IMG/VR virus record: IMGVR_UViG_2930337131_000001
Span: 64,054 to 128,053 of that record
Direction: 5' to 3' (one strand)
DNA: 64,000 bases
DNA from: a virus
Taxonomy: Duplodnaviria; Caudoviricetes
The translations under genes and the position numbers were made by a program. The notes beneath the pieces are model-generated. The model worked only from the letters and a program-made list of their open reading frames with translations. It did no database searches and was not told where the DNA came from. Shown here one piece after another: positions 17,451 through 57,826 of this stretch (position 1 is the first letter of the stretch; every line of letters begins with the position of its first letter).

Positions 17451-18044
17451 ATGAGTGGCGAGACGATCAACAACAACGAAATCGTTGTCCCCAGCATCAC
17501 CCGCGTCTACCTGGGGCCCGTCGGCACGGCCGCGCCCGCCGACGCAACCGTGGCGATGCCGGCCGCTCTGCGGAGCGTCGGCCTCACCACTGAGGACTCG
17601 CTCAAGTTCAACTCCGAACCGAACTTCGAGCAGGTCAAGAGCGCGCAGAGCTCCTACCCGACCCGCACCTTCCAGACCTCCGACGCGGCGACCATCGAGG
17701 TCGACCTGCAGCAGTGGTCCGGCGAGAACTTCAAGGCCGTGTACGGCGGCGGCACCATCGCCGAGATCACGCCGAGCGGCGGCACCGGCACCCCCAAGCA
17801 CTACAAGTTCACGCCGCCCCGCATCGGTTCTCGTACCGAGGTGATGGCCGTGGTCGAGGTCATCGACGGCGGCAAGCACTACCGCTACGTCATCCCCCGC
17901 TGCATGCAGATGGAGGGCGTCGCCTCCGACCTCGCGAAGACGAAGGAGGCCGTCCTCCCGCTGCGCCTGGCCGTCCAGGGCGGCGACGACCTGGATGCCT
18001 TCTACGTCCTCACCGACGACCCCGCGTTCGCGCCCGCGGCGTGA
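17451..18044 (+). CDS. Major tail (tube) protein
   Basis: VYLGPVGTAAP...VGLTTEDSL...YRYVIPR, typical of actinophage tail tube proteins; synteny. Confidence 0.8.
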   Translation: MSGETINNNEIVVPSITRVYLGPVGTAAPADATVAMPAALRSVGLTTEDSLKFNSEPNFEQVKSAQSSYPTRTFQTSDAATIEVDLQQWSGENFKAVYGGGTIAEITPSGGTGTPKHYKFTPPRIGSRTEVMAVVEVIDGGKHYRYVIPRCMQMEGVASDLAKTKEAVLPLRLAVQGGDDLDAFYVLTDDPAFAPAA

Positions 18045-49122: not shown

Positions 49123-50514
49123 TCACGCGCTGGGGACGACGCACTGGAAGCACGCCGTGCCCTGGACGAACCGGTCCCCGTGCTCCTCGCACACCTCGAA
49201 CACCACCTCGTCCGGGCGGACCTCGCAGGACTCGCACGCGGTGCCCGGCTGGGCATACTTCTGGCACAGCGGGCAGCGGGGCCAGCCCTCGCACTTCACG
49301 CACCGGTCCGTGCCCGTGGGCGTGGTGATCGGGTCCCGGCACTCCTTGCAGTCCGAGAACCTCGTGCGGCGAAGAAGCATCCCGTCGACGTCCTCGCCGG
49401 GCATCATCGCGTCGGGCTGCCAGACGCTGCTGTTCTTGATCTCCTCGTAGCGCTCCCAGTAGCCGGGGGCGTTCTCCGGGTCGCGGGGAGCGGGCATCAC
49501 CGCGCGGCGCGGCACAGGCGTCGACGCGAGGTCCGACAGGCGCCGGGCGATGACAGCTCCCACCGACCGGGTGTCCGTCGGCAGCGGCCGCAGCAGCACG
49601 GTGAGGATGAGATCGCGGGGGAAGTCGTCCAACAGGAGCCCATCGACGGCGCGGCCCTGGTCCTGCAGAACCTTCCCCGTCAGCAGCAGCTCCGGCCTCT
49701 CGTGGCCGAGACCGAGCAGCAGGTCGACGCCGGGTGTCCTCTCCACGGCTCGAGCCTTCTTCTTCTGGGTACGGATATCGACAGCCTGGCCGTCCTTCCT
49801 TCCCTCCCCGGCTGCAGGAGCTGCAGCGCTGGAACCTACGGAGGGAAGGGGCGAGTCAGTGGTGCGGGTAGTAGGGGAGGGTTGGGTGACTTCAAGTCGC
49901 CCCCCCTCGGACTTGTAGTCACCCCTCTCGGGACTTGTAGTCACCCCCTGACTTGTAGTCGCCCCCTTTTCGGGGTTCTCCACAGGGGTGACTTCCTGTC
50001 GCCCCCCCTCGGAGGGGGTGTTTTCCACAGGGGTGACTTCCAGTCGCCCCTCCTGTTCGCCCTCCGCGGGGGCCGACTCGGGGGCCTGCTTCGGCTTGGG
50101 CTTGCCCTTGTCGGCGCGGGTCTTCTTCGGCGGGGCCGGGGCGATGGCCGGACGATCCTCGCGGGTCAGCGGCCTGCGGCCGAGGCGGGCGCGGAAGGCG
50201 TTCGTGCGCTCGATGTCACGGAACCACTCGTGAGGGATCAGCAGGTCGTACACCGTGGGCCGTCGGTGTTCGGGGATGTACATGGCCGCGCGCTGGTCGC
50301 CCTCGGCGATGAGCTTGCGCTCCTCCATCGCGGCCAGGGCGCGCTGCACGGTGCGCGTGCTGATCTTGGCGTAGCTCGCGATCGTCTTGACCGACGGGAA
50401 GGCGTTGCAGCCGTCTTCGTCGGCCGCTTCGGCGAGGCAGCAGAGGGTGCCCCACTCGTTGATGTCTGCCGTGGGCGCGTCCTTCATCGCCCACAGGATC
50501 GGGTCGAGACTCAC
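49123..50514 (-). CDS. Second replication initiator (HTH_36-like) with intragenic iterons and C-terminal Cys-rich Zn fingers
   Basis: AFPSVKTIASYAKISTRTVQRALAAME; several CxxC pairs at the C-terminus. Confidence 0.75.
   Translation of the reverse strand: MSLDPILWAMKDAPTADINEWGTLCCLAEAADEDGCNAFPSVKTIASYAKISTRTVQRALAAMEERKLIAEGDQRAAMYIPEHRRPTVYDLLIPHEWFRDIERTNAFRARLGRRPLTREDRPAIAPAPPKKTRADKGKPKPKQAPESAPAEGEQEGRLEVTPVENTPSEGGRQEVTPVENPEKGATTSQGVTTSPERGDYKSEGGRLEVTQPSPTTRTTDSPLPSVGSSAAAPAAGEGRKDGQAVDIRTQKKKARAVERTPGVDLLLGLGHERPELLLTGKVLQDQGRAVDGLLLDDFPRDLILTVLLRPLPTDTRSVGAVIARRLSDLASTPVPRRAVMPAPRDPENAPGYWERYEEIKNSSVWQPDAMMPGEDVDGMLLRRTRFSDCKECRDPITTPTGTDRCVKCEGWPRCPLCQKYAQPGTACESCEVRPDEVVFEVCEEHGDRFVQGTACFQCVVPSA
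49888..50050. repeat. Six iterons GACTTNNWGTCRCCCC (putative origin)
   Basis: Copies start at 49888, 49910, 49932, 49950, 49990 and 50035. Confidence 0.8.
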
Positions 50515-50777
50515 AATCGCTCTCTCTGAGGTTCATGGGTCCAGAGAGGCAGGAACCGCGCATCGCGAATATCACAGCCTGGCGCGGAAACGAGTGGCCG
50601 CGCCGAGGTGCCTGTATGCTCGATGCCAAGCAGTCCCTACCCCCTTTGGCGAGGACCGGGTAGGAAGTTGGGGCGTCAACCGGGCCAGGTTGATGCCCCT
50701 TCTGCATGTCTGCCGCTAATTTCGGTGGCGGCGATCACACCTTACACCTGCGTCATCCGAACGGTAGGATGGTTGGC

Positions 50778-50999
50778 ATGACGACACCACGGACGCCTGC
50801 GAGGAAGAAGGTCAGCATCACGCTGCCGTTCGAACTCGAGGCTCGCGGCCAGGCTGCGGCCGGCGACAACTTCTCCGCCTACATGGAGCAGGCCCTGGAG
50901 GAGAAGCTCATCAACGACGGGATGCTCGAGTACAACCGGCTGCGCGCCCTGGACCCGGCGGAGGACCTGTTCGAGGCCGCCGAGGCGGACGCCGCGTGA
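50778..50999 (+). CDS. RHH-type antitoxin (leaderless)
   Basis: RKKVSITLP...NFSAYMEQAL; TAGGAT -10 element 7 nt before ATG. Confidence 0.65.
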   Translation: MTTPRTPARKKVSITLPFELEARGQAAAGDNFSAYMEQALEEKLINDGMLEYNRLRALDPAEDLFEAAEADAA

Positions 51000-51313
51000 C
51001 CGACATCCAGCGCGGTTCGGTGTGGCGCATCCCCACCGTGGGTCGCGAACGCACGGTCCTGGTCATCGAGAACAACGCGGTGATCCGACTGCACCCGGGC
51101 GGCATCCTGTGTGCCCTGATCCAAGAGGTCGCGGACGCTCGGGACACCCTCGTCACCGTCCCGATCCAGGAGCCTGTGGCCGGCGTCGTCATGGCTCCCG
51201 ACATCTCCGCGTTCCGGCCGCAGCGCTTCGAGCAGGGAAAACTCGAGGGCTACGTCTCGGCCGCCGACATGGAGCGCGTAGACCGCGCCGTCCGGGCCGT
51301 TCTCGACCTGTAG
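50996..51313 (+). CDS. PemK/MazF-family toxin
   Basis: IQRGSVW...ERTVLVIENN...GYVSAADMERVDRAVRAVLDL. Confidence 0.75.
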   Translation: MTDIQRGSVWRIPTVGRERTVLVIENNAVIRLHPGGILCALIQEVADARDTLVTVPIQEPVAGVVMAPDISAFRPQRFEQGKLEGYVSAADMERVDRAVRAVLDL

Positions 51314-51358
51314 ATCGCTGATCCTGCGCGCCCCCTGCCGACGTGGCCGGGGGCGTCG

Positions 51359-51835
51359 TCATGCCCGGGTCCTGATCGCGGCCCAGGTGACGCGGCCGCC
51401 GTGGTCGCCGATGTTCTGGCCCACCTCGGCGGCGACGCCATGCACCAGGTACAGGCCCGGCTCCTCCTCGGGCGCGGGCAGAGGGCAGTTCATCTCCCCC
51501 ACCGACAGCATCACGTGCCATCCGTCGTACGCGATCCGTGCGACCAGGCCGGCGCCGACCGTGTGCCGGGCGGTGACGTCCACCAGCTCGACGAGGACGG
51601 CCTGGACGTCGGCGGAGATCGTGGTGACGTCGCGCACGCCCTCGAGCATCCGAGGCAGTGCCAGCGCGGCGAGCGCACGGGCCTGCTCCATCGCGTTGAC
51701 GGGCGAGACCTCGGAGCCGATCACGAAATCGACCGAGTTCTCCACGCCGAACAGCAGCGCGGGGTCGCTCTCGGTACCTCTCTCCGTGAGCGTGCGCGGA
51801 GAGAGGTCGTGGGGCCCGATGTCAGAGATCGTCAC
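51359..51835 (-). CDS. Degenerate HATPase_c_2 (anti-sigma-kinase-like) protein
   Basis: LVELVDVTARH (N-box Asn lost); GLYLVHGVA...GRVTWA. Confidence 0.55.
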   Translation of the reverse strand: MTISDIGPHDLSPRTLTERGTESDPALLFGVENSVDFVIGSEVSPVNAMEQARALAALALPRMLEGVRDVTTISADVQAVLVELVDVTARHTVGAGLVARIAYDGWHVMLSVGEMNCPLPAPEEEPGLYLVHGVAAEVGQNIGDHGGRVTWAAIRTRA

Positions 51836-52182
51836 GTTGATCCGTTCCGTCGATGGCTCGTTCTCGAATGTTAGTTCGATACCGAGTAGCGTGCGAGGGG
51901 TCTAAGCGGGTGGAACCGACTGGGTGGTCGGACAGTGAGGGCGGAGGAGAGGTAGCGATGCCACGGGGGGCCTTCCGGGGGGATACGTGCGGTTATCCAG
52001 GGCAAACGGCAGCACTTCCGGTAACCAAGCGTTGCAGGATCGTGCCGTTCCGCCACCCATCAAAGATGGTCACCAGGGTCATCGTCAAACGATTCGTGGT
52101 CGAAACCTCTGCAGCGCCAACCGATTGTTGGATTGGAGCTAGGGTGAGAACCTCACGTCCCGCCAGGAGAGACCACCACACC

Positions 52183-52683
52183 GTGACCTCAGCCACCCCC
52201 CCTCCCCGCTCGTTCAGCGAAGTGCTGAACCTCCTCCTCGAGTCACAGGCCCAGGAGGATCCGAAGAACCCCGGCACGTTCGTTCCCCCGACGAACACCG
52301 AGGTCGCCGAGGCGATCAACGCCAAATTCGGCCCCGGGTCCATCACCGGCGAGTACGTCCGCCGACTCCGCAAGGGCGACATCAAGAGCCCCAGCGTGCA
52401 GGCCGCCTCCCTGCTCGCCGCCTTCTTCGGCCTGCCCCTGGACGTGTTCAACGCCACTGGCAGCGAGACCTCGAAAAAGGTCATGGAAGAAGTGCAACGT
52501 TTGACCGCCTACAGGCGTCGAACCCTTGACGACGAACCACCGACTGTCGCCGTGCTGGCGCGGGCCGCACGCCGCCTGTCTCCCGCCGGCCAGAAACGCG
52601 TCGTCCAGTACGCCCAGCGGCTCGAGGAGATCGAAGACATGGAACGCGGCGCCGGTGAGCCCATGGCACCGTCCAGCGACTAG
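52183..52683 (+). CDS. EspR-like XRE transcriptional regulator
   Basis: FSEVLNLL...EVAEAI...ITGEYVRRLRKG..SPS....LAAFFG; C-terminal ARAARRLSPAGQ; AGGAG RBS. Confidence 0.75.
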   Translation: MTSATPPPRSFSEVLNLLLESQAQEDPKNPGTFVPPTNTEVAEAINAKFGPGSITGEYVRRLRKGDIKSPSVQAASLLAAFFGLPLDVFNATGSETSKKVMEEVQRLTAYRRRTLDDEPPTVAVLARAARRLSPAGQKRVVQYAQRLEEIEDMERGAGEPMAPSSD

Positions 52684-52706
52684 CCCCCCACAAGGTACGC
52701 ACTCAG

Positions 52707-53249
52707 GTGATCCGATACTCCAACGACCGCGAGGTGCGCCAGACTCTGGCGGCCTTGACCGTCCCGAACCCGCTCACAGTCGACTCTCTCTTCGCAGTCA
52801 TGCGGGACCACTACCAGACGTGCTACTCACGTGCTCTCGAGCTGTGGCGTGGAGCTTCCCCATTCCCCCAGATCCACGCCAACGCCCTGTGGCTGACCCG
52901 CCCTCACGCTGACAGCGACGTGGTGTGGCTCGACCCCGCGCTCACCGGCGCGGCCGCCGTGCACTCCCTCGGCCACGAGTTCGGCCACCAGGCCCTACGG
53001 CACAAGCCCCTCGAGCTCCCCACCGAGCCACGGCAGGCCGAGACGTACGAATTCCTCAGCTCCGAGTTCCTGGACGGCTGCCTGTTCGGCCGTGCCCGCT
53101 CCCACGACGGGCCCCAGGATCCGGAGTACGTGCGCGTCGAGGACGCGGCGGAACGGTTCGCGTTCCTCCTGCGCCGCACGGCCGCGGACCAGGCCCGCGA
53201 CACCCGGCACCACGACCCGCTGGTCGGCCGGCTGCACGACAGCCTGTGA
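52707..53249 (+). CDS. ImmA/IrrE-like zinc metallopeptidase
   Basis: HSLGHEFGH (HExxH) and downstream EDAAERFA. Confidence 0.7.
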   Translation: MIRYSNDREVRQTLAALTVPNPLTVDSLFAVMRDHYQTCYSRALELWRGASPFPQIHANALWLTRPHADSDVVWLDPALTGAAAVHSLGHEFGHQALRHKPLELPTEPRQAETYEFLSSEFLDGCLFGRARSHDGPQDPEYVRVEDAAERFAFLLRRTAADQARDTRHHDPLVGRLHDSL

Positions 53250-53282
53250 CCCTCCCCCGCCCACCCCTCGCCGAAGGCCCCC

Positions 53283-54539
53283 GTGTCCACTGACGACCTC
53301 ATAGACCTGTTCACCACCATCCCCCTCTGGGTGGTGGTCGCGGTCCGTACCTACTACTGGCCCAAGACCCCGGGGAAGCGGGCGATCCTCGCCACCTTCA
53401 CCGCCCTCACCGTCGGCGCCACCCTGCGACTCGCTTTCATCGACGACGCCCTGGCCCGCCTGTTCCACTTCAAGGACGCGGCCGTCCTGCCCAAGCACCT
53501 GTGCGTGATGCTCGCCAGCATCCTCCTGGTGGGCTGGCTCAAGTCGGTCGTCCCACCCCGTGACAAAGAGCCTGCCTGGCTCCGCTGGATCGACTTCAAG
53601 CCCCGCATGGTCTTCGTGGCCGTCATGAGCATCGCGGCCTCCGCCGTCTTCCCGTACGTCCGGCCCTCGATCACCGCGCCCGACGGCTCCCCCGACTTCG
53701 CCTCCGCCCAGTACGGCGACGTCGCCGGCACCGTGCACCTGGCCGCCTACCTCCTGACCATGGGTGTGGCCCTGGCCCCCTCCGCGGTGCTCTGCCTCAC
53801 CGTGGCCAGGCGCACCGATGACCGCCTCCTGCGCGTCTGCATGCGCCTCATGGCCGCGGGCGCGGCCGCGGGTGCCTTCTACCCGGTGTACCGGATCGCG
53901 TTCCTGATCTGCGGGTTCACGCACTGGACGTTCCCGCTGAACGAGGCCGAGTTCCACCGCGGCGGGTCGCTCATCCAGCTCGTGACCATCCTGTTCATCA
54001 TCGTCGGCAGCTCCGTGCGCGCCGTGGAGATCGTCCTCCGCGCGGTCCGTATGCGCCGGGCCCTGATCGACCTCCGCCCCCTGTGGGCCGAGCTCGTCTC
54101 CGTCCTCCCGCCGGACGTCATCAAGCGCCGCTTTCAGGAGCCGACGGGCGCCCTGGCCGACCGCTACACCTTCACCGACCTGTACGGCCGCCTGGACGCC
54201 CGCATCGTCGACATCTCCGACGCCGCGTTCGAGCTGCTCCCGTGGGTCGAGGAGGACCTCCCCGGCCGGGCGCTCGAGGAAGCCCGCACGGCCGGCCTCT
54301 CCGGCGGGGAGGCCGAGGCAGCAAAGCAGGCCCTGTGCCTGCGCGTCGCCCGCCAGCGGGCCGTCGACGGCGAGCCCCACGCTAGGACCCCCGCCGTATC
54401 TCTGCTGTCCCTGCGCGACGACCTGGCGTCGAACACCCGATGGCTGGCCCGGGTCGCCCGCCACTACGCCTCGCCCGCATTCGACGACGCGGCCAACCGC
54501 CTCGCCGGACACCTCGTTCTCCAGGAAGCCACCGCATGA
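53283..54539 (+). CDS. MAB_1171c-family multi-pass membrane protein with C-terminal cytoplasmic (DUF6545-like) domain
   Basis: About 7 TM helices, then LRPLWAELVSVLP...RIVDISDA...WLARVAR; follows the XRE and peptidase genes. Confidence 0.75.
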   Translation: MSTDDLIDLFTTIPLWVVVAVRTYYWPKTPGKRAILATFTALTVGATLRLAFIDDALARLFHFKDAAVLPKHLCVMLASILLVGWLKSVVPPRDKEPAWLRWIDFKPRMVFVAVMSIAASAVFPYVRPSITAPDGSPDFASAQYGDVAGTVHLAAYLLTMGVALAPSAVLCLTVARRTDDRLLRVCMRLMAAGAAAGAFYPVYRIAFLICGFTHWTFPLNEAEFHRGGSLIQLVTILFIIVGSSVRAVEIVLRAVRMRRALIDLRPLWAELVSVLPPDVIKRRFQEPTGALADRYTFTDLYGRLDARIVDISDAAFELLPWVEEDLPGRALEEARTAGLSGGEAEAAKQALCLRVARQRAVDGEPHARTPAVSLLSLRDDLASNTRWLARVARHYASPAFDDAANRLAGHLVLQEATA

Positions 54540-55153
54540 GCAGCACCACCGCACCCGCCCCGGCCCCCGTCGAGAACCGGGCCGCCCGGCTCATCACCGA
54601 CCGCGCCGAGCCCCGCAACGTCATCATCCTGGTGTCCCTGGGCGTCGGCCTCGCCCAGGACAACCCGCTCACCGGCGCGCTGTGGGCGCTCGAGGCCATC
54701 CTGTTCGCCGCGGCGATCCCCATGGCGTACATCAAGAAGGGGATGCGCGCGGGGAAGTGGGCCGACCGGCACGTCGGCCAGGTTCAGCGCCGCACCCTGC
54801 TGATACCCGTCATCATGGCGTCCGTCGCCACCGGCATCGGCGCCATGCTCGTCTTCCACGCCCCCCGCGCGATGCTCGCCCTGGTCCTCGCGATGCTCGC
54901 CACCCTCGCCGTGCTCCTGGTCCCCACCGCCGTGTGGAAGTGGAAGATCAGCGTGCACACCGCGGTCGCCGGCGGAGCCCTGGCGATGCTCGCCCTCACC
55001 TGGGGCCCGCTGGTCTGGCTCGCCTACCCGCTGCTGGCCATCCTCGCCTGGTCCCGCATCAGCCTGCGTGACCACACCCTCGCCCAGACCATCGCAGGCG
55101 CGGCCGCGGGCACCATCACGGCGGGCCTGGTCTTCGCCGCCCTCACCGCATGA
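54536..55153 (+). CDS. PAP2-superfamily membrane phosphatase
   Basis: KISVH and WSRISLRDHTLAQ motifs; multi-TM; ATGA overlap. Confidence 0.7.
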   Translation: MSSTTAPAPAPVENRAARLITDRAEPRNVIILVSLGVGLAQDNPLTGALWALEAILFAAAIPMAYIKKGMRAGKWADRHVGQVQRRTLLIPVIMASVATGIGAMLVFHAPRAMLALVLAMLATLAVLLVPTAVWKWKISVHTAVAGGALAMLALTWGPLVWLAYPLLAILAWSRISLRDHTLAQTIAGAAAGTITAGLVFAALTA

Positions 55154-55166
55154 CGTAAGGCGCACC

Positions 55167-55892
55167 GTGTCTGTACTCCTCCCGGCCATGCAGACGTCTT
55201 CCGCACCCGTAGCCCCGACCGCCCGCCACCTCGCCGTCATCGCCGACGGCAACCGCCGGTGGGCGGCCGCCAACGGTCACACCGTCGAACACGGCTTCCG
55301 TCAGGGCGCGGCCGTCGTCCACCAGGTCCTCGACCACTGCCGCGCCCGCGGCCTCGAGGTCGCGTCCGTGTTCCTCATGTCCGACCGGAACTTCGGCCGC
55401 GCCGAGGCCGAGGTGCAGATCCTCACCGACGTGATGGTCGACATCCTGGAGAAGGAGACCGCCGCGACGACCGGCCCGATCCGTGTCCTGCGCCAGTTCT
55501 CCGGCAACTACCTGATCCCCGGCCGGCTCCTGGCCGCCATCGACCGCGCGGAGCAGGCCACGGCCGACCGGACGGGGATGACCGTCTGCCTGGGCATCGG
55601 CTACGACGGCCGCGCCGACATCCGCCAGGCCGTCGCCCACGCCCTCTACGCGCCGGACTACGACGAGCGCGAGGAACTGCCCGTCGAGCGGTACCTGTCC
55701 ACCGCGGGACTGCCCGACCCCGACGTGGTCATCCGCACCAGCGGCGAGCGCCGCCTGTCCGGATTCCTGCTCTACCAGGCCGCGGACGCCACCCTGCACT
55801 TCGATGACCGGTACTGGCCCGAGTACAACGCCGACGCGGTCGAGGAGGCCCTCGCCGTGCACGCGGTACAGAACCTCACGTACGGCCGCTGA
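55167..55892 (+). CDS. cis-prenyltransferase (UppS family)
   Basis: HLAVIADGNRRWA, SDRNFGR, GYDGR and DPDVVIRTSGERRLSGFLLYQ motifs. Confidence 0.9.
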   Translation: MSVLLPAMQTSSAPVAPTARHLAVIADGNRRWAAANGHTVEHGFRQGAAVVHQVLDHCRARGLEVASVFLMSDRNFGRAEAEVQILTDVMVDILEKETAATTGPIRVLRQFSGNYLIPGRLLAAIDRAEQATADRTGMTVCLGIGYDGRADIRQAVAHALYAPDYDEREELPVERYLSTAGLPDPDVVIRTSGERRLSGFLLYQAADATLHFDDRYWPEYNADAVEEALAVHAVQNLTYGR

Positions 55893-55893
55893 C

Positions 55894-55920
55894 CAAGATC
55901 GTTCTTGCCCAATTGGGCAC
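55894..55920 (+). repeat. parS-like element, copy 3 (upstream of parA)
   Basis: CAAGATCGTT-CTTGCCCAATTGGGCAC. Confidence 0.75.
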
Positions 55921-55976
55921 GCCCCCGGGCCCCGTGCGAGTGACGTGCGGGGCCCTATCACGCGCCGCGGCCGGTA

Positions 55977-56023
55977 CCGATACGGGCTAGGTGCCCGATA
56001 CGGGCCGACGGTCTGACTATCGT
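55977..56023 (+). promoter_or_regulatory. parA promoter with CCGATACGGGC direct repeat (x2), leaderless
   Basis: Repeats at 55977 and 55995; TATCGT 7 nt before ATG 56031. Confidence 0.5.
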
Positions 56024-56030
56024 CCCTCCC

Positions 56031-56873
56031 ATGAAGACACCCACAACTGATCTCGAGTGGATCCGGGCAGGCACGTTGCCGCTCCCCCGGCCCGACGAGA
56101 CACGCATCATCGTGATGTGCAATCAGAAGGGCGGCGTCGGTAAGACGACGACGACCATCAACCTCGCCGGGGCTCTCGCCTTCTACGGCAAGAGAGTCCT
56201 GATCGTGGACGGCGACCCCTCCGGCAACGCCTCGGACGCCTACAAGGTCGAGATGCTCGACGAGGACGAAGGCGACACGCAGACGAAGTGCATCCTCGAA
56301 GGGAAGGACCCCCACGACCTGGTGGCCAGGCCGTTCGAGAACATCCACGTTCTGCCGGCCAGCCCGGACATGCAGTTCCTCGCCCCGCGCCTGCGCGAGC
56401 AGGGCGATGCACTGCACGCCTACCGCCACATGCTGGACTTCTTCCGGGGTGAGTACGACTACATCCTCGAGGACACCCGGCCGGCCGTCGACACAGACAC
56501 CAACTCGATGACCGCGGCCGCGGACGCTGCGGTCACCATGGTCGACGTCGACCGCTGGGCGATGAAGGCCGTCGGTACCCAGCTCGCCCAGCACGAAAAG
56601 ATCATGAAGCAGCTCCGGCGCGACGACTTCCTCGAACTGGGCCTGGTCATCAGCACTGCCAAGATGAGCGGCGGCGACTTCGACAAAGCGGTCCTCAAGA
56701 ACCTGCACAACCACCCCATGCTGCCGGTCCTGTCCGAGGTTCCGTACCGCGGCGCAGACCTCAAGGAAGCCCGCGCCATGGGCCAGCCCGTACAGATGTA
56801 CCGTCCGAAGTCCGACACGGCGGGCTTCTTCCGAAACGTCGCAGTCAAGTCAGGGCTGGTGGAGGCAGCGTGA
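56031..56873 (+). CDS. parA: ParA/Soj partition ATPase
   Basis: NQKGGVGKTTT, LIVDGDPSGN and YDYILEDTRP motifs. Confidence 0.9.
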   Translation: MKTPTTDLEWIRAGTLPLPRPDETRIIVMCNQKGGVGKTTTTINLAGALAFYGKRVLIVDGDPSGNASDAYKVEMLDEDEGDTQTKCILEGKDPHDLVARPFENIHVLPASPDMQFLAPRLREQGDALHAYRHMLDFFRGEYDYILEDTRPAVDTDTNSMTAAADAAVTMVDVDRWAMKAVGTQLAQHEKIMKQLRRDDFLELGLVISTAKMSGGDFDKAVLKNLHNHPMLPVLSEVPYRGADLKEARAMGQPVQMYRPKSDTAGFFRNVAVKSGLVEAA

Positions 56874-57826
56874 GCAAGCCCAAGGACTGGGAAGCAGAGA
56901 CCGACTGGGGCAGCCTCGGCGGCGGTGGCTCCGGCAAGACGGCCGAGAAGCTGGCGAAGAACGAGAAGACGACCGAGGAGCAGCGTGCGGCCGCACGCGC
57001 ATCCCAGATCGAGAAGGCCGTCGCCGAAGCTATCGAGGACGCCAGGCCCGGACTGCACAAGGTTCCCGACCCCGTTGAGCCCGCCGGGGAGGGCGCGCTC
57101 ACCGACGAGGAACAAGTGCGGTACCGGGAATGCCTCGAGGGCGTCGACCTGGGCAATCAGGCATGGTTCATCCAGGGCAAGGCGCTCGACACGATCGCCG
57201 TGGGCCGGCTGTTCCGCGACACCCCGCACAAGCTCGAGCCGCACCGCAACTACGAGACGATCGAGGAGTGGGCGCCGCTGGAGAAGGGCGTGTCGGTCGG
57301 CCAGTGCAGCAAGCTGCGCGCGGCCTGGGCGATCGGGGAGGTCCTCGCGGCGCGTGGCTACGACGCCAACCCTGGCCAGGTCCGGGAGATCGTGCCGGTC
57401 CGCAACGCCTTCAACCTGAACGCGGCCGTCGCGCTGTACGTCCTGGTCGCCGACACCTGGGGCCAGGACAAGGTCACGGCCGAGCGGCTGCGCAACACCG
57501 TCAAGATGCTGCCCGGCGACCTGGAGCTCGACGAGGACGAGGACGTCGACGCCCTGGCGAAGACCATCAAGGGCGTGCTCGTCGAGGAGCTGCAGCCGCC
57601 CGTCTCGCACGCGATCCCGGCCGCGGTGACCCGGGCCGTCGACAAGCGGGCCATCGGCATCGCGGACGCCCTCAACCGGCCGCGGATTCCCCGCTCGGAG
57701 GTGACCCGCCAACTCATGCAGGCGTTCGCCGACCCGGAGGACTCCACGGTCTTCGACATCGTCCTCGAGCGGATGAAGGCGGAGGAGGCGGCCGCGAAGA
57801 AGGCCGCGAGGAAGGCGCTGGAGTAG
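56870..57826 (+). CDS. Non-canonical ParA partner (putative centromere-binding protein)
   Basis: GTGA overlap with parA; disordered N-terminus; no GxxR CTPase motif seen. Confidence 0.6.
   Translation: MSKPKDWEAETDWGSLGGGGSGKTAEKLAKNEKTTEEQRAAARASQIEKAVAEAIEDARPGLHKVPDPVEPAGEGALTDEEQVRYRECLEGVDLGNQAWFIQGKALDTIAVGRLFRDTPHKLEPHRNYETIEEWAPLEKGVSVGQCSKLRAAWAIGEVLAARGYDANPGQVREIVPVRNAFNLNAAVALYVLVADTWGQDKVTAERLRNTVKMLPGDLELDEDEDVDALAKTIKGVLVEELQPPVSHAIPAAVTRAVDKRAIGIADALNRPRIPRSEVTRQLMQAFADPEDSTVFDIVLERMKAEEAAAKKAARKALE

Follow-up and report, generated by a model that had tools for sequence, protein, structure and literature searches.

Switches in which a repressor of the XRE family is encoded beside an M78 peptidase with an HExxH motif are known, as in ImmR/ImmA of ICEBs1 and DdrO/IrrE of Deinococcus, and their triggers are mostly obscure. 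ImmR/ImmA is the XRE and M78 switch of a mobile element. In BlaR1/BlaI and MecR1/MecI a membrane sensor, a zinc protease, a repressor that is cleaved and a co-located protective enzyme act together. Cleavage of DdrO by IrrE, which derepresses genes, is described in two papers (PMC6868357, PMC12828697). Here we describe a cassette of five genes, encoding an XRE protein, an M78-like peptidase, a MAB_1171c-family membrane protein, a PAP2-like membrane protein and a cis-prenyltransferase, at positions 52183-55892 of a 64,000-nucleotide stretch of viral DNA (the window). The window is the second half of the 128,053-bp IMG/VR virus record IMGVR_UViG_2930337131_000001.

Like ImmR/ImmA and DdrO/IrrE, the cassette encodes an XRE-family protein next to an HExxH peptidase. 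Unlike them, it adds a membrane protein of the MAB_1171c/DUF6545 family, which is a near-obligate partner of the peptidase (34 of 35 loci surveyed), and the window's peptidase differs from ImmA and IrrE in having no Pfam M78 match. The proposed logic of the cassette is the same as that of BlaR1/BlaI and MecR1/MecI. In those two systems, however, a single polypeptide is both sensor and protease, and a winged-helix protein serves as repressor, whereas the cassette encodes separate proteins of unrelated families. The triad of XRE, peptidase and MAB_1171c would be a split analogue of these membrane-sensor/protease/repressor systems.

MAB_1171c is among the most expanded uncharacterised gene families in Streptomyces. 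Sequence comparison suggests that the first three genes of the cassette represent one copy of a switch that is very widespread in this genus, where the enzyme next to it varies. By analogy, the data fit best if the triad controls the neighbouring cargo, which here comprises the PAP2-like protein and the cis-prenyltransferase; the phage-plasmid copy is the sole one found joined to isoprenoid enzymes. We tentatively favour the reading, possible though somewhat short of probable, that the cassette is an inducible, protease-relayed operon altering the prenyl-phosphate lipid supply of the lysogen. If the operon does alter carrier-lipid supply, it would represent a new type of lysogenic conversion in antibiotic-producing soil bacteria, and a signal-making operon would be a novel way for phages to communicate. 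Since the cassette is also found in the isolated phage Gilgamesh, whose host is a laboratory strain, the phage-plasmid copy offers a compact handle on the triad.

Organization of the cassette

The five genes are intact, co-oriented and tightly packed, and lie where an earlier note, written from the letters of the window alone, had placed them; all junctions were read. The XRE gene (52183-52683, plus strand, 166 amino acids (aa)) has a GTG start preceded by AGGAGAG. It is followed on the same strand, after a gap of 23 nucleotides (nt), by the gene for the M78-like (ImmA/IrrE-like) HExxH zinc peptidase (52707-53249, 180 aa) and, after a further 33 nt, by the gene for the MAB_1171c-family membrane protein (53283-54539, 418 aa). 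The gene for the PAP2-like membrane protein (54536-55153, plus strand, 205 aa) shares an ATGA stop/start overlap with the latter, which indicates that the two are translationally coupled. The cis-prenyltransferase gene (55188-55892, plus strand, 234 aa) comes last, after 34 nt. For these last two genes the shorter starts were taken, based on the ATGA overlap, the Gilgamesh annotation and the alignments.

A sixth gene, up158 (51359-51835, minus strand, 158 aa), is located divergently upstream of XRE, is conserved together with the cassette and belongs to the same unit. It was found upstream of XRE by tblastn in 16 of the 21 related loci. The product is HATPase_c_2-like (anti-sigma-kinase-like); 8 of 15 members of its family match Pfam HATPase_c_2 (best E 6.6e-5), and the window's own copy has no match.

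All six cassette genes and parAB have ratios of nonsynonymous to synonymous substitution rates (dN/dS) of 0.31-0.60 when compared with 8-13 relatives, and the lowest dN among the cassette genes is that of the PAP2-like gene. Values of dS are 0.35-0.38 for the PAP2-like and prenyltransferase genes (54536-55892) and 0.59-0.83 for the genes on either side. This low dS may be the result of a more recent exchange of the pair among elements, or of constrained synonymous sites.

The evidence supports the earlier note in calling the element a phage-plasmid, and identifies it as a complete Gilgamesh-like one of Streptomyces, 128 kb in length. The record has direct terminal repeats and a completeness rating of 100%, the G+C content of the window is 66-78%, and this complete phage genome contains genes for plasmid replication (an initiator) and partition (parAB) and has relatives that are maintained as plasmids. 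The cassette is 77.6% identical at the nucleotide level to gp98-gp102 of the Streptomyces phage Gilgamesh (MN234216), an isolated phage of S. lividans, and 72-76% identical to three circular Streptomyces plasmids of 125-130 kb. Contigs of 124-133 kb carry 20 of the 51 MAB_1171c homologues. Gilgamesh gp98-gp102 correspond to the five genes, in unchanged order and with ParA next in line, at amino-acid identities of 61-91%. The Gilgamesh record annotates one of them as an HTH protein, one as a metalloprotease, two as membrane proteins and one as hypothetical, and no functional study of them was found in the literature searched.

The triad in Streptomyces

Of 201 Streptomyces genomes sampled, 171 contain matches to NF042915, the family model of the membrane protein; the matches total about 544, and single genomes have as many as 9. 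In an even sample of the phylum, only 5 of 151 genomes are matched. The neighbours of MAB_1171c were surveyed at 35 loci (the 30 best of the genus scan and five from added scans, three of these five being copies of the window's own subfamily), using flanks of ±1.5 kb, open reading frames (ORFs) called by our own script, and purpose-built hidden Markov models. In 34 of the 35 loci MAB_1171c has an M78-like peptidase as a same-strand neighbour; the peptidase gene precedes it in 21 of them, while the other 13 have it downstream, arranged as MAB_1171c-XRE-peptidase. A same-strand XRE gene could be seen at 20 of the 35 loci. Pfam identified 9 amidohydrolases, 3 aldo-keto reductases, 1 cytochrome P450, 1 deaminase and 1 PAP2 protein among the 36 downstream ORFs, and 9 TetR proteins and 9 M78 peptidases among 30 other neighbours of MAB_1171c. 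The triad, which the earlier note had described from actinomycetes, is thus recurrent, and it does swap its adjacent enzyme.

This distribution bears on a role of the XRE protein and the peptidase as a phage immunity repressor and anti-repressor, similar to ImmR/ImmA, with the downstream membrane genes giving superinfection exclusion via surface polymers. Phages classically place exclusion genes after a repressor, an arrangement that the cassette would fit. Every Gilgamesh-like relative keeps the pair, next to genes for replication and partition. Combinations of an XRE protein with an M78 peptidase are known to act as switches in mobile elements; IrrE/DdrO is covered in PMC6868357 and PMC12828697. 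The triads detected by NF042915 in the 171 genomes are, however, mostly located beside metabolic enzymes, and the core has also been found on a conjugative plasmid (see below). We consider an immunity switch improbable, also in view of the promoter region described below.

One Streptomyces genome carries three MAB_1171c-family genes in tandem, on one strand and within 4 kb (G015:C4:725831-729864).

The membrane protein and the peptidase

The window's MAB_1171c protein scores 116.7 bits against NF042915 (cut-off 100), and its residues 255-397 match PF20182 (DUF6545) with an E value of 3.7e-22. In the hydropathy profile, 5 hydrophobic segments are strong and about 2 are weaker, and a cytoplasmic tail of 167 residues (about 252-418) comes after them. 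The family and the tail were described correctly in the earlier note, whereas its figure of about seven transmembrane segments is approximate. The motifs P266-L267-W268 and D313 are conserved among 46 sequences. A single-protein scan of viral contigs using MAB_1171c as query found no relative.

The NCBIfam name of the family is "putative transporter", and MAB_1171c could move a specialised short prenyl product, made by the two enzymes, across the membrane, with the XRE protein and the peptidase serving as ordinary operon control that takes no input from it. The translational coupling to the PAP2-like gene agrees with such a role, as does a MAB_1171c mutant of M. abscessus from an antibiotic-susceptibility (minimum inhibitory concentration) mutant screen, which according to PMC8707978 formed about 50% less biofilm. 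No transporter family in Pfam is matched, however, a soluble peptidase is the near-obligate partner, and the 167-residue cytoplasmic domain is conserved. The peptidase pairing in 34 of 35 loci and the cytoplasmic domain argue for signalling rather than transport, and we find a transporter quite unlikely.

In the peptidase H86, H90, E91, H94, H99, E145 and E149 are invariant among 18 sequences. The HExxH motif (H90-E91-x-x-H94), with Glu residues downstream, is as intact in the 18 relatives as it had been reported to be in the window. There is no hydrophobic segment in the hydropathy profile, i.e. the protein is predicted to be soluble. An affinity to M78 shows at the profile level only. The window's peptidase had no Pfam match even at E ≤ 1, 9 of 18 relatives weakly match Peptidase_M78 (PF06114, best E 2.4e-4), and hhalign of the peptidase against M78-positive, MAB_1171c-linked peptidases gave 94.3% (E 1e-7). 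Sequence searches of the PDB using the single peptidase and PAP2-like proteins gave no match. Searches using profiles of the two gave chance-level matches only, save for the C3 motif of glucose-6-phosphatase at E 0.31.

The XRE protein and the promoter region

XRE is present in all 21 related loci. Its GTG at 52183 and the ribosome-binding site AGGAGAG (52165-52171) are conserved in an alignment with 19 relatives. The description of the protein as EspR-like stands as a weak match of the family profile to the EspR structures 3qf3, 3r1f and 4ndw (E 3.5e-4 to 6e-4); against HTH_3 the protein scores 16.7 bits (E 0.0075), below the cut-off of 23. XRE is presumed to be the repressor and the substrate of the peptidase.

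The 347 nt between up158 and XRE (51836-52182) constitute a divergent promoter/operator region. Three inverted repeats, TCGAATGTTAGTTCGA (51864-51879), CCATCAAAGATGG (52057-52069) and CCAACCGATTGTTGG (52117-52131), and a 10-mer box, GTCAAACGAT (52084-52093), are conserved in the window and 19 relatives, and a -10-like TAGGGT (52140-52145) is located in a conserved block of the alignment. A scan with consensus promoters and terminators, which is ill-suited to Streptomyces, gave no sites. We infer that XRE binds the promoter palindromes. Each of the motifs occurs only once in the 128,053-bp genome at ≤ 2 mismatches, with the exception of the 10-mer box GTCAAACGAT, which has unrelated 2-mismatch matches elsewhere. 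If the palindromes are the operators of XRE, their uniqueness implies that, within the phage, control by the module is confined to its own genes. The divergent promoter serves the HATPase-like gene alone, as a monocistronic unit. Both observations argue against the immunity switch.

An extended palindrome, CAACGAAATCGTTG, at window position 17474 (genome position 81527) resembles the operator-like CAAC..GTTG sites and is located 38 nt into a predicted ORF of 202 aa, near an intergenic gap. Besides those of the promoter region, the genome has three CAAC-N4-6-GTTG matches, all of them inside ORFs.

Control of lysis and lysogeny, by a lipid-based counterpart of arbitrium (AimP/AimR), had been proposed for the cassette in the earlier note. 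Assuming that the palindromes are operators, there are no sites of the regulator at lysis-lysogeny genes. The core also occurs in loci outside phages and the triad is found beside unrelated enzymes. Together with the unique palindromes and the monocistronic divergent gene, this speaks against the proposal. The likeness to arbitrium lies in the idea of a phage-borne produce-and-sense loop only; unlike arbitrium, the cassette has no peptide or AimR-type receptor, the module is not specific to phages, and no link to lysis-lysogeny genes was found. The unique palindromes and the presence of the core in non-phage contexts make the module look self-contained, rather than like a phage lysis-lysogeny switch.

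The cis-prenyltransferase

The last gene of the cassette encodes a member of the cis-prenyltransferase family, scoring 168.8 bits against PF01255 (cut-off 27) and 151.3 bits against TIGR00055 (cut-off 109.55). The motifs DGNRRW and RTSGERRLSGF are present, of which the earlier note had pointed out DGNRRW and RTSGE, and D20, N68, R71, R183, E187, R189 and S191 are invariant in the alignment. Across the clade formed by the phage enzymes, DGNRRW was found in 73 of 75 members and an RTSGE-type motif in 71 of 75. As to the kind of prenyltransferase (PRENYLTRANSFERASE), the clade is monophyletic with 100/99 support, and its long branch separates it from the two host paralogues. The tree, which is unrooted and has long branches, assigns the clade neither to the short- nor to the long-chain host enzymes as its source.

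The best NCBIfam model for the window's enzyme is NF011403, at 159.9 bits, which is below the equivalog cut-off of 348; the phage clade scores 155-199 bits, compared with 386-402 for true members. Identities of the clade are 38-43% to NF011403 proteins, 34-36% to the short-type paralogue of Streptomyces and 27-30% to the long-type paralogue. Rv1086 was among the best PDB matches of the window's enzyme (E 1.1e-33). At the site where undecaprenyl diphosphate synthases (UPPS) have Ala, 67 of the 75 clade members have Leu and 8 have Ile, and NF011403 proteins and Rv1086 have Leu or Met. The sequence around this site is V-F-L-M-S in the window's enzyme, V-Y-L-L-S in Rv1086 and V-F-A-F-S in A. baumannii UPPS; in Streptomyces it is L-Y-A-F-S in the long-chain paralogue and L-W-M/L-L-S in the short-chain one. 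Wang et al. (2008) reportedly showed that Leu84 of Rv1086 limits chain length, as a bulky residue blocking the elongation tunnel.

Because a bulky residue is found in all 75 members, NF011403 is the nearest family and the identities fall in the order given, a short-chain product of the Rv1086 type, not undecaprenyl, is likely. An enzyme making only C50-55 carrier lipid would have told against the earlier proposal of a prenyl signal, and the short-chain signature suggests a different product. The product of Rv1086 is E,Z-farnesyl diphosphate, which is elongated by Rv2361c, as stated in PMC6450523 and PMC13586052. The clade has the fold, the catalytic motifs and the bulky residue in common with Rv1086 and NF011403 enzymes. 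It differs from them in its identity and its score far under 348, its own long branch and its C-terminal RxG motif, which is R-T-F-G-R in the clade and R-R-F-G in Rv1086/NF011403 enzymes.

The phage-type clade is rare; a search at E ≤ 1e-45 brought up members in 2 of the 401 Streptomyces genomes sampled. Two matches came from a scan of viral contigs with the prenyltransferase, one a genuine locus and the other (L009) short and spurious. Gilgamesh gp102, which is annotated merely as a hypothetical protein, is a cis-prenyltransferase. No report of a prenyltransferase carried by a bacterial phage was found in the open literature, and no paper was found for the PDB entries 8WU7, 8YLZ and 8WU6.

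The PAP2-like protein

The PAP2-like gene is the best conserved cassette gene across the related loci. In an alignment of 42 sequences W75, D77, R78, H79, R86, W136, K137, S139, S173, R174 and H180 are invariant. Motif C3 is represented by the invariant S173-R174-x5-H180, with Q184 at the place of the Asp in the canonical motif (SRX5HX3D), and motif C2 by S139-V-H141 (canonical PSGH), where the serine is invariant and the His is replaced by Asp in a subgroup. A C2-like S-x-H and a C3 SRx5H are shared with PgpB, BcrC and LpxE, which are phosphatases of undecaprenyl diphosphate (C55-PP). An hhalign comparison with 14 canonical Streptomyces PAP2 domains gave 91.4% (E 9e-7) over C2 and C3, and a precomputed PF01569 match is present for about half of the PAP2-like relatives listed.

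The AlphaFold2 model has a predicted local distance difference test score of 89.5 and seven predicted helices. Both Foldseek libraries were topped by PAP2 proteins, the best local match being a Marseillevirus PAP2 (root-mean-square deviation 2.9 Å over 102 columns), and LpxE, B. subtilis PgpB and E. coli PgpB were among the top matches. PgpB is named as a C55-PP phosphatase in the PDB entry lines. These comparisons suggest that the PAP2-like protein is probably a divergent lipid-phosphate phosphatase, which is the least secure identity in the cassette.

Linkage and distribution

The four-gene core XRE-peptidase-MAB_1171c-PAP2 was found in 20 of 21 related loci, and the cis-prenyltransferase in 14 of 21, one of them frameshifted (L019); the linkage is thus conserved in related elements. 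In 19 of 19 distinct clade loci that could be placed, the cis-prenyltransferase is located directly after the PAP2-like gene. This order holds even in L108, where PAP2 is 43% and MAB_1171c 27% identical. The prenyltransferase was found only in loci sharing phage genes with this genome. Four loci (L003, L018, L021 and L023) have the core without cis-prenyltransferase, and no phage genes in common with this genome. A motif screen for cis-prenyltransferase ORFs in 13 loci without a tblastn match found none, although this screen missed a true positive, L133, which has RSAGE.

The PAP2-like family was found in 65 of 201 Streptomyces genomes, and MAB_1171c is directly upstream in 18 of the 30 best PAP2-like loci. 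In IMG/VR, XRE-peptidase-MAB_1171c is located upstream in 7 of 8 PAP2-like loci, 3 of which also have the prenyltransferase and parAB. PAP2-like genes without MAB_1171c have mixed neighbours (WS/DGAT, TPR, DUF6928, sigma factor, UDG, SDR and others).

On pMDJK44.2 of S. alboflavus (L003, NZ_CP023977), an 88.7-kb MOBF conjugative plasmid, the core lies about 4 kb from a type I-E CRISPR-Cas system. The whole cassette is present in a chromosome, on a contig of 7.46 Mb (L019/L061; G001:C1, about 2,321,700-2,324,400), where the prenyltransferase is split into two frames and the rest is intact.

The linkage bears on another possible role of the two enzymes, which is to make a signal. A short Z-prenol or prenyl phosphate, for instance a (Z,E)-farnesyl derivative, would accumulate with lysogen density, be sensed by MAB_1171c and be relayed via the peptidase to XRE, and would thereby tune induction, lysogeny or host development. 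In support of this, the prenyltransferase has the short-chain signature V-F-L-M-S and NF011403 as its nearest family, is linked to a PAP2-like gene in all 19 loci and is confined to loci with phage genes of this genome, and the cassette has a fixed place in the phage-plasmid family. Formation of farnesol by a cis-farnesyl diphosphate synthase and screened phosphatases in engineered E. coli is also described in PMC10303002. The four-gene core, however, is also known from outside phages and from loci that have no prenyltransferase, the triad is elsewhere combined with unrelated enzymes, operator copies are absent elsewhere in the 128-kb genome, the cassette contains no exporter, and the window's enzyme is without the conserved C-terminal Arg. 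We regard such a lipid-signal loop as rather unlikely. A wider version of this idea we judge unlikely as well; the phage-plasmid would make and sense its own lipid, coupled to density or to the envelope, and the hundreds of Streptomyces triads would form a novel class of small-molecule sensors that are built of three parts and are tuned in each case by the enzyme encoded next to them.

A possible carrier-lipid operon

Building on the gene content, homologies, linkage statistics, operon layout and palindrome uniqueness observed here, the repression, cue, cleavage, enzyme products and phenotype of our favoured carrier-lipid operon would be as follows. XRE would shut its own promoter at the conserved palindromes. 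A membrane cue perceived by MAB_1171c would release or activate the peptidase via the DUF6545 tail, and the peptidase would cut XRE, as ImmA cuts ImmR and IrrE cuts DdrO, so that the operon becomes derepressed. The cis-prenyltransferase would then make a Z-prenyl diphosphate, probably E,Z-farnesyl diphosphate, priming the host long-chain synthase, and the PAP2-like enzyme would strip phosphate from prenyl diphosphate. In the carrier-lipid pathway, a short-chain primer synthase and a diphosphate phosphatase bracket the long-chain synthase of the host, and the simplest outcome would therefore be a regulated supply of polyprenyl phosphate. The result would be an on-demand shift in the polyprenyl-phosphate carrier supply and the envelope of the lysogen, i.e. 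a lysogenic conversion. Possible phenotypes are tolerance of antibiotics that bind carrier lipids, and altered surface polymers.

Several observations weigh against this reading. That the cargo is the output of the triad is proposed by analogy alone. A short-chain product, as predicted for the prenyltransferase, raises carrier lipid only indirectly, via the host long-chain synthase. The window's copy of this enzyme has the C-terminal motif L-T-Y-G-R; its Leu, a state found in 3 of 73, replaces an Arg that is present in at least 90% of the clade, and the dN/dS of the enzyme, 0.60, is the maximum in the cassette. The position of the cassette is conserved throughout the phage-plasmid family, including MBT27, a distant element with a MAB_1171c identity of 38%. 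Given this fixed place, the cassette could be a core phage function and not cargo.

The remaining difficulties concern the PAP2-like protein. Its score against Pfam PAP2 (PF01569), 25.3 bits (E 1.4e-5), is below the gathering score of 27.2. The canonical motif C1 (KX6RP) of PgpB, BcrC and LpxE is absent from the family, which has the invariant W75-x-D77-R78-H79, R86 and K137 instead, and its helices are arranged differently from those of the three enzymes. None of the Foldseek matches reached E ≤ 0.001, and their TM-scores were 0.32-0.48. The identification as PAP2 phosphatase in the earlier note is thus borderline, with C3, the C2 serine and the hhalign result in its favour and the Pfam cut-off and C1 against it.

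The protein could consequently be something other than a prenyl-diphosphate phosphatase, acting on another lipid phosphate or being a non-catalytic partner of MAB_1171c, while the prenyltransferase alone would feed the host pathway. The missing C1, the change of the C2 histidine to Asp in a subgroup and the weak fold matches are consistent with this. Furthermore, in our reading of the model and the hydropathy profile, the three conserved motifs are in Lys/Arg-rich loops that may face the cytoplasm, unlike in classical PAP2 proteins. On the other hand, none of 42 sequences departs from C3 SRx5H or from the C2 serine, the hhalign score is 91.4%, and the strict order with the prenyltransferase suggests a shared pathway. 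A role other than prenyl-diphosphate dephosphorylation seems improbable to us, and the carrier-lipid operon remains the reading that we prefer, if tentatively.

Neighbouring genes

The cassette is part of a plasmid-maintenance region with the order replication initiator, MazEF-like pair, cassette and parAB. The replication-initiator-like gene (49123-50514, minus strand) encodes 463 aa with an N-terminal HTH_36 and a C-terminal end resembling a double zinc ribbon, and matches phrog_1032 (E 2e-16). In Gilgamesh its place is occupied by two small helix-turn-helix genes. The PemK/MazF-like toxin-antitoxin-like pair (50706-51313) consists of an ORF of 97 aa overlapping the start of a second ORF (50996-51313), which matches a PemK/MazF-like toxin (E 7.6e-7). 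The pair is located between the replication initiator and the cassette and is common to several relatives.

PADLOC found no defence family, and PHROGs no family, for any of the six cassette proteins, and the ESM Atlas retrieved only their own families. Rfam gave no match at E ≤ 0.1 in 51300-56100.

Downstream of the cassette, ParA is encoded at 56031-56873, and a ParB-like gene is found in the ParB position directly after it (56870-57826). Between the stop of the prenyltransferase and parA, the sequence contains a perfect palindrome, TGCCCAATTGGGCA (55906-55919), and on its 3' side a GC-rich hairpin (55927-55955). Together these (55906-55955) may mark the end of the operon, or may be a partition (par-region) or operator site.

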